A stretch of 8,059 nucleotides of DNA from a virus (lineage: Duplodnaviria; Heunggongvirae; Uroviricota; Caudoviricetes), in the IMG/VR virus record IMGVR_UViG_2737471861_000013, positions 1 through 8,059 of that record. The stretch is one strand, 5' to 3'. The notes beneath the pieces were generated by a model that was not told where the DNA came from, made no database searches, and saw only the letters and a program-made list of their open reading frames with translations. Numbering within the stretch: the stretch's first letter is position 1; each line of letters starts with the position of its first letter. A program made the position numbers and the translations under genes. Positions 699 through 6,416 of the stretch are shown here, piece after piece.

Positions 699-1088
699 TC
701 AGGCGGCTGCACCCGCCGTTTTCTCGTACTTACTGATAGTGATCTCGACCTTCCCTTCCGGGATAACCGGTCCCCACTCCACCAGCATTCTTTTCACCTG
801 GCTGTCGTCTTCCCACACACCCGCGTGGGTCAGAACGTCAAACAGCGCCTTGTTATAGTTGTCCAGATCGCGGATCCGGTTATCCGGAGGAAACAACACG
901 ATCTCCACTGAAGCAGGTGCCGACGTTGGTTTCGGCAGACGACGTAACTGTTCAACTATTGCTGCGCACGCCGCGCTCTGAAATTTTCGCCCCGCCGCGC
1001 TTATCAGGCTCTTACCTGCAAACGCCCCTTTGTTGGGGTGTCGCCAGTACGTGTTCACGCTGGGCGGAAAAGGCAGGATCAGCTTCAT
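699..1088 (-). CDS. rusA: RusA-family Holliday junction resolvase
   Basis: 129-aa ORF with LPFPPSVNTYWRH near the N-terminus, RDLDNYNKALFDVLT...GVWEDDSQV in the middle and a conserved C-terminal region, matching the RusA pattern. Its ATG overlaps the upstream stop as ATGA (translational coupling). Confidence 0.85.
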   Translation of the reverse strand: MKLILPFPPSVNTYWRHPNKGAFAGKSLISAAGRKFQSAACAAIVEQLRRLPKPTSAPASVEIVLFPPDNRIRDLDNYNKALFDVLTHAGVWEDDSQVKRMLVEWGPVIPEGKVEITISKYEKTAGAAA

Positions 1089-1738
1089 GCCACTATCTCC
1101 CTGACCAGCCGTTCTGCCTGCTGGCGAACCTGCGCCAGAAACGCCTCACCACATGCCTCAAGTTCATCGCGCCCGATGTAGCTGATTGCCGGTCCCTTCC
1201 AGGTCTTATCGAAAACAGCAATAGCACCAGCGAAGAAAGCACCTGTCGGCACCTGCTTCTCGTCTTTCGGGATAAACCAGGCAGGCAGTTCAAAACCAAT
1301 ACGCCCGCGAATAAAAGTAATATGGTCTGCATCTTCCGGCCACCACACTTCGCTGGTGGCAGCTTTGATCAGGAAAACATAGCGCCCGCCTTTATCACGC
1401 ATAGCACTGGCATGTTTCATGATGTAACGCATGCCGGTGATGTATTGCCCCTCATGCTGACTGGCGCGGCTGTATGGGGGATTACCAAAGGCAGCACCTT
1501 TAAGCTCCGCAAGACGTTCTGACCAGTCATGCGCCAGCGCGTTGTCTTCCGCCGTGTAATACGCGGCACATTTGGCGTTATCACCGTCGGTGAACAGATC
1601 CAGAACAAACGGGCCAAACAGGGTGTTAATTCCCCAGAAAATGTTGTCCGGCGTGCGCCACTGATCGCCCACTTCCTTCAGTTCATGGGCTGGTTTGTTC
1701 CGCAGTTCCACCAGCGCCTGGCAATATTTATTACTCAT
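1085..1738 (-). CDS. Phage-type DNA N6-adenine methyltransferase (Dam family)
   Basis: Contains the GNPPY catalytic motif (FGNPPYS) and DLFTDGDNAKCAAYYTAED in the pattern of phage Dam methylases. The track ORF begins at 1771, but the ATG at 1738 (MSNKYCQ...) is preceded by a GGGGG ribosome-binding site and overlaps the upstream TAA as TAATG, so 1738 is preferred. Confidence 0.8.
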   Translation of the reverse strand: MSNKYCQALVELRNKPAHELKEVGDQWRTPDNIFWGINTLFGPFVLDLFTDGDNAKCAAYYTAEDNALAHDWSERLAELKGAAFGNPPYSRASQHEGQYITGMRYIMKHASAMRDKGGRYVFLIKAATSEVWWPEDADHITFIRGRIGFELPAWFIPKDEKQVPTGAFFAGAIAVFDKTWKGPAISYIGRDELEACGEAFLAQVRQQAERLVREIVA

Positions 1739-2226
1739 TAAGCCCCCACGTAATTCCCTGACAGATACCACTCTTCACCTGATGCAGCCCGCTTGCTGCT
1801 TTTCCGTAAACACCGTTCACGACGCGCAAGAAAATTGTTTCGCTCTGGCTGGGAGTGGCTTTCACGGAATGCCTCCATCCACACCGTTGCAGCACGACGG
1901 TATAAGCCCCTGGACTCCAGTTCTTCCGCCTGGCGGCTCAGGCACAAAATCACCCGCGGGTCGTTAGTGCCGACATAGAAATTGCGCACAGGTCTGGTTT
2001 CACGAACTGGTTGTGGTTCCGGATCCTGCGCTCTCTCAGTCAGGCGCGGGAAATGTCTGCGTGTATCCCCTTCACAACGGTGAGCCACACGCCCACTCTG
2101 ACGTAACTTGCTTGCTGACTGCAGAACGCGCTGCCGTGAGTAACCTGCAAAAGCATCCGCAATGTCTCCGGAAGTACACCCCGGATGGGCTTCAATGTAT
2201 TTCTGAACTTCATTCAAAAGACTCAT
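1738..2226 (-). CDS. Putative regulator: N-terminal winged-helix-like region fused to an ANR/PerC-like C-terminal motif
   Basis: ORF in the nin-like position. The C-terminal segment AEELESRGLYRRAATVWMEAFRESHSQPERNNFLARRERCLRK fits the LE-G-Y-AA-W-A ... N-F-A-RRERC pattern recalled for small ANR/PerC-type regulators; the N-terminal roughly 50 aa look like a wHTH. Start chosen at ATG 2226; GTG 2232 is an alternative. Confidence 0.5.
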   Translation of the reverse strand: MSLLNEVQKYIEAHPGCTSGDIADAFAGYSRQRVLQSASKLRQSGRVAHRCEGDTRRHFPRLTERAQDPEPQPVRETRPVRNFYVGTNDPRVILCLSRQAEELESRGLYRRAATVWMEAFRESHSQPERNNFLARRERCLRKSSKRAASGEEWYLSGNYVGA

Positions 2227-2228
2227 GA

Positions 2229-3170
2229 TCACCCCCTGAATCCTGCCGGGATCTGGCTGTAGTCCACGTTGTCGTAACTGGCTTTGAAGTACGGGTCTTC
2301 GCGTTTTTCTGTGTACGTGCTGACGGACGGCGATAAGCGCAGGGAAAGCTCATCCCATTTTTCCCGCAGCTTCGACGGGCTGAGCACGTTACGGCACCAG
2401 AACGGATCGCGGCTGACGCGGCTGTACATCTCGCAGATTTGTTTGTGAGTACGACCATCCTGCACACACATCAGGCGAATTTCGTTTGCCCAGGCTGTCC
2501 AGTTCGGTTCTTTGGGACGAACCACCTCGCCGTCACATTCGGCGGCCTGCTCGTACAGGGCGATGATTTTTTTCCAGAGCCACTGTGCGCAGGTCAAATC
2601 ATCCTGCGTTCCCCACTGGCGCTTTTTAGGGCTGAATACAACCGCATCAGGATGGCGAGTTAAAAACTCCTGTTCAGCCGTCTGCGTGTCCGGTTGCGAA
2701 GCGTCCGGACGAGAAGTTTTTTTATCTGACGGATCATGTTTTGATTTTACTGACGGATCCCCGCCAGATTCTGACGGGTGAAAACCCGCTTTTTTGCCAG
2801 ATTTCGACGCATCAAATTTTGACGGGTCAGATTTTGATGCGTCAGATTTTGACGGGTCAGAATCTGACAGTTGAGAAAATGCCGCTGCCTGAAGCTTCGC
2901 AACGTTAAGCTGATAAACATTCGACGCATTGCGGTTACCCTGGCGACGCGCCTTACGCGTTAACCAGCCTTCTGCTTCCAGCCGTGCGATAGCCGTCCTG
3001 ACGGTACTCATCCCCGCGCCAATCTGGCGGGCAATGGTTTCAATTGATGGCCAGCACACACCTTCGTCATTACTGAAATCAGCCAGGCGGGCCATAATTG
3101 CCACGCTGGATAATTTCATGCCTGACGCTGCGCAACCATCCCATACATAGCCGGTTAATTTAGTGCTCAT
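2229..3170 (-). CDS. Replication initiator (lambda O-like replisome organiser): N-terminal HTH DNA-binding domain, repetitive linker, C-terminal protein-interaction domain
   Basis: 313-aa ORF preceded by a GAGGT ribosome-binding site. The N-terminus has an HTH-like segment (SIETIARQIGAGMSTVRTAIARLEAEGWL). A low-complexity DPSKSDASKSDPSKFDASKS linker is encoded by tandem DNA repeats, as ori iterons lie inside lambda O. It sits directly downstream of the cro/cII-like genes. Confidence 0.75.
   Translation of the reverse strand: MSTKLTGYVWDGCAASGMKLSSVAIMARLADFSNDEGVCWPSIETIARQIGAGMSTVRTAIARLEAEGWLTRKARRQGNRNASNVYQLNVAKLQAAAFSQLSDSDPSKSDASKSDPSKFDASKSGKKAGFHPSESGGDPSVKSKHDPSDKKTSRPDASQPDTQTAEQEFLTRHPDAVVFSPKKRQWGTQDDLTCAQWLWKKIIALYEQAAECDGEVVRPKEPNWTAWANEIRLMCVQDGRTHKQICEMYSRVSRDPFWCRNVLSPSKLREKWDELSLRLSPSVSTYTEKREDPYFKASYDNVDYSQIPAGFRG
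2721..2875. repeat. Tandem iteron-like repeats (about 8 copies of a ~15-bp unit, consensus near ATTTTGACGGGTCAG) inside the initiator gene; candidate origin of replication
   Basis: Visible directly: ...atctgacggatc / tactgacggatcc / attctgacgggtg / atttcgacgcatc / attttgacgggtcag / attttgatgcgtcag / attttgacgggtcag / aatctgacagttg. An A/T run (agtttttttatc) lies at the low-coordinate edge. Confidence 0.6.
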
Positions 3171-5339: not shown

Positions 5340-6416
5340 ATGACAAAATCAATTTGTTTTTTTAATCATAAAGGTGGGGTAAGTAAAACCACAACAACCT
5401 TCAATCTTGGATGGGCACTTGCGGATGAAGGCAAGAAAGTATTGATGGTTGACCTTGATTCGCAATGTAATCTAACAGGAATGGTTCTTGGCTATGAAAA
5501 GATTGATGAGGGTTTAGATTCTTTTTATTCTAGCAGAGATAACTTAACTCTTGGACCTATTGTAGAATATTTGATTAATGGCGGACAACCTGAAGCATAC
5601 CTTGAAAAAGAAACGGGAAAATTACACCCTACACTGCATGAAAACCTTCTGCTTCTTCCCGGACATTTAGATGTTTCGGACTTAGATTCACAGATAAGTG
5701 TTTCTCTAAAAATTGCTGCTGGTATTCCTGCTACAAGAAATATACCAGGGAACCTGCCAAAAATATTACAGCTAATCGCCATGAAGAATAATATTGATTA
5801 CATTCTTTATGATCTCAGCCCTAATGTTGGAGGTTTAAATGAAGTAGTTCTCATGTCAAGTGACTATTTTATCGTACCTGTAGCTCCAGACTTTTTTTGC
5901 TGGCAAGCAATTCGCTCTCTCTCAAAAAATATACCTCGCTGGCACAAAGAATTAGCATTATTTAAAGAAAATAATGATGGTAACTCTTCACAATCAATTA
6001 AAAATGCACCGCAGTTTCTAGGTATGATTCAGCAGAGATACAGGCCGCGTAAAGGAGCACCTGTAAAATCTTTCGAAAAATGGATGGCAGCTATCCGTGA
6101 TGCTGTTGATTCGATCTTAGTGCCAAATCTAGAAAAAATTACCTGCATAATTCCACGAGATAAAGTGCAACATGCAATTAACAAAACAACAGTCAGTGGA
6201 GATTTATCAGCCTATGATCTTGCGCATATTTCCGATTTCAACTCATTAATCGCAATAAGCCAACAACTAGCGACACCTGTTTTCTCCATCAGTGATCAGC
6301 AAATTCGCGATTCAGGGCAATTTGGGCATGCCTTAAATACAATGAAATCAAGCAGAGACGCCTTTAACGAACAATTTAAAGGGCTGGCTCAACGAGTTCT
6401 AGAACTTACAAAGTAA
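5340..6416 (+). CDS. Orphan ParA/MinD-family (SIMIBI) ATPase with a ~100-aa C-terminal extension; no adjacent ParB
   Basis: Deviant Walker A KGGVSKTT at residues 11-18, an A'-like VLMVDLDSQCN and a B-like IDYILYDLSPN. Ribosome-binding site AAAGGA about 9 nt upstream. Markedly AT-rich compared with the replication region. Lies between the repressor gene and the left operator. Confidence 0.8.
   Translation: MTKSICFFNHKGGVSKTTTTFNLGWALADEGKKVLMVDLDSQCNLTGMVLGYEKIDEGLDSFYSSRDNLTLGPIVEYLINGGQPEAYLEKETGKLHPTLHENLLLLPGHLDVSDLDSQISVSLKIAAGIPATRNIPGNLPKILQLIAMKNNIDYILYDLSPNVGGLNEVVLMSSDYFIVPVAPDFFCWQAIRSLSKNIPRWHKELALFKENNDGNSSQSIKNAPQFLGMIQQRYRPRKGAPVKSFEKWMAAIRDAVDSILVPNLEKITCIIPRDKVQHAINKTTVSGDLSAYDLAHISDFNSLIAISQQLATPVFSISDQQIRDSGQFGHALNTMKSSRDAFNEQFKGLAQRVLELTK

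Follow-up and report, generated by a model that had tools for sequence, protein, structure and literature searches.

EPEC PerC and the EHEC Pch proteins (PchA/B/C, PchD and PchE) are, like the YfdN protein considered here, encoded on mobile elements in Enterobacterales. The effects of Pch and other PerC-family proteins include activation of LEE1 and extend to curli and flagella (PMC4764244, PMC6265319, PMC7369912). Pch proteins associate with DNA at loci bound by H-NS and lower the occupancy of H-NS at LEE1 (PMC4764244); H-NS could not be co-precipitated with PchA (Fukui et al., PMC4764244), so that contact with H-NS is not established for PerC modules. LEE1 can also be repressed by a member of the family, a protein of a phage-inducible chromosomal island (PMC11773190). 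The ANRs (Aar, Rnr and Cnr) have a single domain and a mass of 4.4-9.5 kDa (PMC10148876); they occur together with AraC-family regulators (PMC4983702), which are described as their activators. Three helices are predicted for ANRs, helices 2 and 3 mediating oligomerisation and the binding of partners, and their signature residues are A10, E14, A22, W26, A29, W43 and R47 (PMC4983702). ANRs bind AraC-family proteins (PMC4983702) and act on H-NS (PMC5570504). Judged from the scores that the ANR model gives to YfdN and to Pch proteins, PerC and ANR proteins look like a single superfamily.

Identity and start of the yfdN gene

The window, by which we mean the whole 8,059-nt stretch of viral DNA analysed here, carries on its minus strand an ORF that runs from an ATG at 2226 to position 1738, a total of 489 nt that specify 162 aa and a stop codon. 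The first-pass annotation was right to take this ORF as real but put its length at 163 aa, having counted the stop codon. The ORF is yfdN, known from the CPS-53/KpLE1 prophage of E. coli K-12 and also called orf40 in SfV and sb43 in ST64B. It agrees in every base (100%) with the yfdN gene of E. coli OkiPb01716 (product WP_074419742.1, annotated as "PerC family transcriptional regulator") and shares 97.8% DNA identity with that of K-12 MG1655. Among complete E. coli genomes, 2,668 out of 5,426 have a match (about half), K-12 strains included. The K-12, SfV and ST64B versions agree with it in length and in both domains, and apart from the choice of start codon no substantial difference sets them off. 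Phages SfII, SfIV, mEp460 and Stx2/Stx2c carry the same protein. The features that we describe below are as follows.

1738-2226, minus strand: yfdN coding sequence, stop codon TAA at 1740-1738 (from the ORF list and the 100% DNA match to OkiPb01716 yfdN)
2047-2226, minus strand: winged helix-turn-helix (wHTH) domain, residues 1-60 (AlphaFold2, Foldseek, weak profile matches)
1960-2046, minus strand: linker, residues 61-89, Pro/Glu-rich, variable and predicted to be disordered (AlphaFold2)
1798-1959, minus strand: PerC/ANR-type three-helix module, residues 90-143 (Pfam PerC, hhalign, AlphaFold2)
1744-1770, minus strand: C-terminal tail motif W-Y-L-S-G-N-Y-V-G, residues 153-161 (family alignment)
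2229-2237, minus strand: junction of initiator gene and yfdN, with the initiator TGA at 2231-2229 and AGGGGG at 2237-2232
1736-1740, minus strand: junction TAATG of yfdN and dam, the yfdN stop codon and the dam ATG overlapping by 1 nt

PGAP, which gives the product the name "PerC family transcriptional regulator", starts the gene instead at a GTG at 2232, for a protein of 164 aa. The minus strand around the start reads CAGGGGGTGATCATG, and a Shine-Dalgarno-like AGGGGG lies 5 nt 5' of the ATG at 2226; the same run abuts the GTG at 2232. This spacing, together with the invariant M-S-L with which homologues open, favours the ATG at 2226 as the start.

The first-pass annotation had pointed to the fusion of an ANR/PerC-like motif to a winged helix. 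This fusion is not new, since the gene is already known as yfdN, is already named a PerC-family member by PGAP and already belongs to PHROG 1324, a family that spans YfdN from end to end (E 2e-77), that carries the label "transcriptional activator" and in which the two-domain architecture is already contained. RefSeq phage records likewise label YfdN a transcriptional activator. The PerC connection is in the literature as well as in public databases: in a 2018 paper, where yfdN is termed "the K12 unique PerC homologue", the gene was deleted as a precaution prior to tests of Pch proteins (PMC5931665). The open-access papers searched yielded no functional study of YfdN as such; the other mentions of yfdN come from lists of screens or transcriptomes (ASKA overexpression, a nitric-oxide transcriptome) and are non-specific. 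Our additions are support at the level of the fold for a winged helix in the N-terminal part, the motif in the tail, and the constant place of the gene behind an initiator gene. As a sequence finding, the gain is one domain annotation, the N-terminal winged helix, on a gene that already has a name.

A winged helix joined to a PerC/ANR-type module

Structure prediction, which the first-pass annotation had proposed as a check, returns the arrangement that it had read from the sequence, with a wHTH at the front of YfdN and a three-helix PerC/ANR module at the back. The AlphaFold2 model, computed from an alignment of 38 homologues (mean pLDDT 80.9), has four parts: a winged helix, a disordered linker, a three-helix module and a tail of low confidence. 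A comparison of full-length YfdN with the sequences of PDB chains gave no match at E up to 10, and there is thus no solved relative.

In the N-terminal domain (pLDDT 85-91) helices at residues 3-13, 19-25 and 31-44 are followed by strands at residues 47-52 and 55-60, which is the H1-H2-H3-β-hairpin wing topology of a winged helix (residues 3-60 of the model). Foldseek against the PDB matches this domain to the winged helices of ArsR/SmtB, MarR/MepR/SlyA, BlaI/MecI and Fur/PerR proteins and of archaeal viruses, over 58-68 columns with an rmsd of 1.5-2.5 Å and a probability of 1.0; the E-values of these matches are about 0.007-0.1 and none reaches 0.001. By its predicted topology, the wHTH of the first-pass annotation is supported at the level of the fold. 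In a BFVD fold search with YfdN, the 50 matches listed are likewise generic wHTH ones only. With sequence profiles, the N-terminal domain matches a MarR-like family weakly (PHROG 1687, E 4e-5) and BilQ more weakly (E 8e-4; 19 bits, where the cutoff is 125); Pfam, run on this domain alone, gave no match, and no curated sequence family matches the wHTH of YfdN above threshold. The winged helices of ArsR/SmtB, MarR, BlaI/MecI and Fur/PerR proteins have their fold topology and their size (about 60 residues) in common with the YfdN domain, but the dimerisation helices of MarR and ArsR proteins are absent from YfdN, where a PerC-type module follows the wHTH instead.

Together, the recognition helix H3 and the wing of YfdN carry +7 net, as against a mean of +3.4 for the family; some members are neutral here, and in some members the N-terminal domain as a whole is neutral or acidic. 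From this charge we think it most likely that the basic winged helix of YfdN binds DNA. Winged helices can also serve as protein-binding modules, which counts against this reading.

The linker that follows has a pLDDT below 50 at residues 64-75; within the family its length ranges between 1 and 28 residues. Beyond it, the three helices of the C-terminal module (residues 90-105, 109-122 and 126-143) are modelled with a pLDDT of 94-97. Pfam PerC (PF06069) matches residues 98-149 with 37.8 bits (E 2.4e-9), above its gathering score of 22.6, and the C-terminal domain is thus a PerC module by profile. The NCBIfam ANR model (NF033650) matches residues 96-142 with 26.3 bits (E 4.7e-6), a score that lies below its cutoff of 32. 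Of the joint ANR/PerC assignment that the first-pass annotation had put forward, the PerC half thus stands and strict membership of the ANR family does not; the motif itself is real and lies at the C-terminus, where the annotation had placed it, as the two profiles and hhalign agree. In the latter comparison, a profile of the YfdN C-terminal domain matches a 104-aa Pch-type protein with 97.7% probability and E 2e-12.

YfdN has the three-helix core and nine invariant positions in common with PerC and the Pch proteins. The core motif reads A-x2-L-E-x2-G-x2-R-R-A-x3-W...C, and in an alignment with the Pch-type protein, PchD and PchE (A5) A17, L20, E21, G24, R27, R28, A29, W33 and C56 are invariant. 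The Pch proteins, however, start directly at the core motif and continue after the conserved Cys with a different extension (PP...MG). The comparators (104 aa for the PchA-type protein, 89 aa for PchD and 90 aa for PchE) are single-domain proteins without a wHTH, and their size, about 90-105 aa, is typical of the PerC family, while YfdN has 162 aa with the wHTH in addition. The expectation that small single-domain proteins are the norm (89-104 aa for Pch, below 10 kDa for ANRs) was therefore sound, and YfdN is an extended, two-domain form. We also considered whether PchD and PchE might be proteins of the YfdN type, in which case their phenotypes would transfer to YfdN; this was ruled out, both being short and single-domain.

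YfdN scores nearer the ANR model than the tested Pch proteins do (26.3 bits, as against 17.9 for PchE and 13.6 for the Pch-type protein). The ANR model matches the same helices, and the three-helix architecture predicted for ANRs agrees with that of YfdN. A manual reading places five of the seven signature residues of ANRs in register in YfdN, as A100, E104, A112, W116 and A119; the counterparts of W43 and R47 are F132 and R136, each one position off (signature from PMC4983702). YfdN is nonetheless unlike ANRs in that its score is below the cutoff, in that it is more than twice their size, and in that it has a wHTH, a tail motif and no AraC-family partner gene in the window. The tail, although modelled with low pLDDT, is conserved across the YfdN family as [WC][YF]L[AS]G[NR][YF]xG, with G157 in 33, G161 in 35 and an aromatic residue at position 159 in 36 of 38 sequences, and PerC, Pch and ANR proteins lack it, judging from an alignment with short PerC-family proteins. 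By analogy with these relatives, the C-terminal module most likely serves for oligomerisation, for contact with host proteins bound to the nucleoid, or for both.

An exhaustive HMMER search over 1.84 billion representatives gave only 105 clusters at E <=1e-3. These include many proteins of 138-165 aa that align with YfdN from end to end at 25-48% identity, which argues for a conserved protein and subfamily and against a chance ORF; the two-domain architecture is that of a subfamily distinct from the short PerC proteins. In the homologue listings that we compared, all matches that carry a name and cover most of YfdN come from Enterobacterales.

Position behind a replication initiator and divergence among related loci

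The gene order in the window is a cro-like gene (YdaS-type), a cII-like gene (YmfL), a DUF4222 gene, the initiator gene, yfdN, dam (PF05869) and RusA; past the end of the window follow KilA-N, DUF968 and Q. The initiator, a protein of 313 aa with HTH_36/DnaD_N, is encoded directly 5' of yfdN, its TGA ending 2 nt ahead of the yfdN ATG, and with the overlapping stop and start codons at the other end yfdN is apparently translationally coupled between initiator and dam. We detected no sigma-70-like promoter and no terminator-like site on the yfdN strand between positions 600 and 4500. The gene lies in a tight early-right (pR-type) operon, and its product is expected after induction, not while the prophage is repressed; the lack of a detected promoter and the place in mid-operon downstream of cro and cII argue against expression in a lysogen. 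The first-pass annotation had suggested that the gene might act in lysogenic conversion, which needs such expression, and on this evidence that suggestion is weakened. Nor does the neighbourhood support its proposed link to an AraC-family regulon, as no AraC-family ORF is present in the 8-kb window or in the 18-kb prophage stretch.

For comparison we took 40 related loci, of which 4 come from genomes and 36 from IMG/VR; a profile search of genome contigs with a narrower alignment (A3) gave 8 loci. An ORF of 253-353 aa lies directly upstream of the YfdN gene in all 40, overlapping it by 4 nt in 38 and separated from it by 2 nt in 2. By BLAST, this ORF resembles the initiator of the window in 36 of the 40 loci, and in 7 Pfam-scanned loci it is an initiator with HTH_36/DnaD_N and/or Phg_2220_C. 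In locus L006 the upstream ORF (353 aa) has no Pfam match and is linked to the initiators solely through BLAST similarity of its C-terminus. In SfV and ST64B, too, the initiator gene adjoins the YfdN gene, with dam downstream. The genes for Pch proteins have other sites: they are found next to lysis genes, within the SpLE1 island, or behind the primase and SSB genes of a satellite-like element.

Downstream of the YfdN gene, most loci have an N6-adenine methyltransferase gene of one of three unrelated families (Dam in 25, D12 class in 8 and MT-A70 in 2 loci; none in 5), and then, in most loci with enough downstream sequence, a LexA_DNA_bind-like gene and RusA. We considered and rejected the idea that YfdN controls the downstream methyltransferase: three families occupy the slot in 35 of the 40 loci, and it is empty in 5, so that a link to YfdN is not obligatory.

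Most viral-contig loci encode a YfdN-like protein with only 25-35% identity to that of the window, while the N-terminal half of the initiator and Dam are about 80% identical. The N-terminal domain of YfdN is the most variable part of the region, at 16-63% identity against about 80% for the flanking genes. From such comparisons, with roughly the last 120 residues taken as the C-terminal segment of the initiator, the type of YfdN appears to track the C-terminal and not the N-terminal domain of the initiator. Thus in L006 an initiator with a different N-terminus but a related C-terminus is followed by a related YfdN, and L081 is alike. There are exceptions: in L074 and L079 the YfdN type is unchanged although the initiator is unrelated, and in L003 the initiator is identical but the N-terminal domain of YfdN shares only 63% identity. 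Spearman coefficients between YfdN and the two halves of the initiator are similar (0.69-0.73), and the co-variation of initiator C-terminus and YfdN does not separate functional coupling from plain adjacency.

Possible functions of YfdN

We favour, with a probability of roughly 0.4, the view that YfdN is a phage early regulator in which the wHTH tethers a PerC/ANR module to DNA and thereby brings about activation or counter-silencing. Induction of the prophage would switch on the early-right (pR-type) operon, so that YfdN would be made together with the replication proteins; the basic winged helix would then pick sites on DNA, and the C-terminal three-helix module would oligomerise, contact nucleoid-bound host proteins, or do both. 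The outcome might be that transcription is activated or de-silenced at sites chosen by the wHTH, in a manner similar to the relief of H-NS silencing by Pch proteins. The identity of the gene, both folds, the PerC membership by profile, the place in the operon and the conserved gene order are results of the analysis, and the binding to DNA, the partners, the link to H-NS or the nucleoid, the direction of regulation and the targets are inferred. On the side of a regulator we note the PerC profile match, the core in common with Pch proteins, the three-helix module, the ANR signature residues in register, the charge of +7, the action of Pch and ANR proteins on H-NS, the Enterobacterales origin of the named homologues, the packing of the gene between initiator and dam, and the labels of PHROG 1324 and the RefSeq phage records. 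On the other side we note the Foldseek E-values above 0.001, a wHTH that lacks an above-threshold family and the neutral or acidic N-terminal domains of some members. We also note the failure to co-precipitate H-NS with PchA, and that the sign of regulation varies within the PerC family, as with the chromosomal-island repressor of LEE1 (PMC11773190).

The constant neighbourhood of the initiator gene raises the possibility that YfdN is instead a replication accessory that works with the upstream initiator, either linking to the replication proteins of the host as an adaptor or modulating the firing of the origin. The adjacency of the two genes in 40 of 40 loci and in SfV and ST64B would fit such a role, as would the tendency of the YfdN type to follow the initiator C-terminus (L006, L081), the absence of a helicase or helicase-loader gene between cII and RusA in the window, and the fact that PchE adjoins a primase and SSB module. 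In lambda, P follows O, and the relationship of the O C-terminus to P resembles the tracking of YfdN with the initiator C-terminus. Adjacency alone, however, would yield the same co-inheritance, and the similar coefficients for both halves of the initiator, the unrelated initiator with the same YfdN type in L074 and L079 and the divergent N-terminal domain behind an identical initiator in L003 all speak against a specific partnership; moreover, homologues have no reported role in replication, and the characterised relatives act on transcription. We consider a replication role unlikely, and we would give somewhat longer odds to the specific proposal that the three-helix module or the WYLSGNYVG tail docks on the C-terminal domain of the initiator or on a host replication or nucleoid protein. 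Were this correct, YfdN would fill the slot of lambda P in phages with DnaD/HTH_36-type initiators, and the PerC/ANR fold would be a general phage adaptor module that was later co-opted for virulence regulation.

Two further readings take their cue from one or the other domain. In line with the first-pass annotation, YfdN might be an ANR-like anti-activator that binds AraC-family regulators of the host, H-NS or both in the lysogen and rewires host regulons, a form of lysogenic conversion. The ANR profile does match the same helices (E 4.7e-6), at a score above those of PchE and the Pch-type protein, the signature residues are largely present, and ANRs bind AraC-family proteins and H-NS (PMC4983702, PMC5570504). 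We nevertheless regard an ANR-like role as distinctly unlikely, given a score below the cutoff, a protein more than twice the size of ANRs, a gene in mid-operon for which we found no promoter of its own and which is present in about half of the complete E. coli genomes, and a window that holds no gene for an AraC-family partner of the kind that ANRs accompany (PMC4983702). The N-terminal domain, for its part, could be homologous to lambda Ren, in which case YfdN might be an exclusion or anti-exclusion protein. A Ren-like family (PHROG 142) matches residues 3-63 with E 0.0038, hhalign aligns the N-domain profile with lambda Ren over 49 columns (E 8.7e-5, a probability of only 60%), and PHROGs 1687, 633 and 19053 are matched by Ren and YfdN alike. 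The position is equivalent as well, Ren coming immediately after the replication genes in lambda, and an N-terminal domain that is the most variable part (16-63% against about 80% for the flanks) is what would be expected of a specificity determinant. The likeness could, however, be generic to winged helices, PADLOC returned no defence-system match for YfdN, and among the 50 BFVD fold matches listed there is no Ren-named protein, nor is there a PerC-type viral model. We know of no established mechanism of action for lambda Ren, and a Ren-like reading therefore predicts little; we think it very unlikely.

YfdN-type genes are very common, being found in E. coli, in the serotype-converting phages of Shigella, in Stx2/Stx2c phages and in the Salmonella phage ST64B, and the relatives of YfdN among the PerC, Pch and ANR proteins govern virulence programmes that include LEE, curli, flagella and the AggR regulon. 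YfdN is thus a reasonable object for a small wet-lab study. If it is indeed a DNA-tethered module that is made on induction, YfdN could link the induction of a phage to the silencing of host or phage genes.

Gene order and divergence around yfdN

A backbone of replication initiator, YfdN-like gene, methyltransferase slot, LexA_DNA_bind-like gene and RusA is kept in the window (699-3170) and in the compared loci L006, L008, L009 and L014-L093. Where the slot is filled, its occupant is an N6-adenine methyltransferase, which can belong to any of three unrelated families: Dam (PF05869) at 25 loci, D12 (PF02086) at eight and MT-A70 (PF05063) at two, with the slot empty at five. The slot is a fixed position undergoing non-homologous replacement.

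Comparison of window positions 1738-3170 with L003, L006, L009, L014, L068, L074 and L081 showed that divergence across the region peaks in the YfdN-like gene, its wHTH half above all; identity is 16-63% in this segment, whereas it is about 80% in the initiator N-terminus and Dam. The type of YfdN tracks the C-terminal domain of the initiator, with L074 and L003 as exceptions.

The initiator gene itself contains tandem repeats, with weaker copies from 2727, and these repeats code for the low-complexity SDPSKSDASKSD stretch of the protein:
2798-2872: tandem 15-bp repeats, 5-6 copies, consensus approximately CAGATTTTGACGGGT
They look like origin iterons embedded within the initiator gene, a likeness to lambda O, whose gene likewise carries embedded origin iterons.

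The two ends of YfdN

The N-terminal domain of YfdN (window 2047-2226) shows a weak yet recurrent similarity to lambda Ren (ren, L010 1681-1971), seen both as a match to the Ren-like family PHROG 142 (E 0.004) and in a direct hhalign comparison (E 9e-5, probability 60%). Lambda Ren also occupies an equivalent position, 3' of the replication genes. At the other end of the protein lies a conserved motif:
1744-1770: tail motif [WC][YF]L[AS]G[NR][YF]xG, residues 153-161
The motif is restricted to YfdN-type proteins, and the structure of the tail is predicted with little confidence. Some partner could dock on this short motif.

Genes beside the immunity region

Two further genes are found near the cI repressor gene:
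5340-6416, plus strand: ParA/AAA_31-family ATPase (358 aa), adjoining cI
6999-7433, minus strand: 'ECs1072 family phage-associated' gene, after the ATPase gene
PADLOC gave the ATPase a weak match to PDC-M28B (E 6e-9) that is confined to the P-loop region. Both genes may be moron or defence cargo flanking the immunity region.

PerC-type genes and replication modules

We note that one 214-aa variant of the YfdN family (P0182) has two wHTH domains in tandem preceding its PerC-like module. The PerC-family gene pchE lies in Sakai Sp7 (L013 41104-42045), a satellite-like element, immediately 3' of an SSB gene with a primase gene farther upstream. Because pchE follows primase and SSB genes there, the link between PerC-type genes and replication modules is not confined to a single kind of mobile element.
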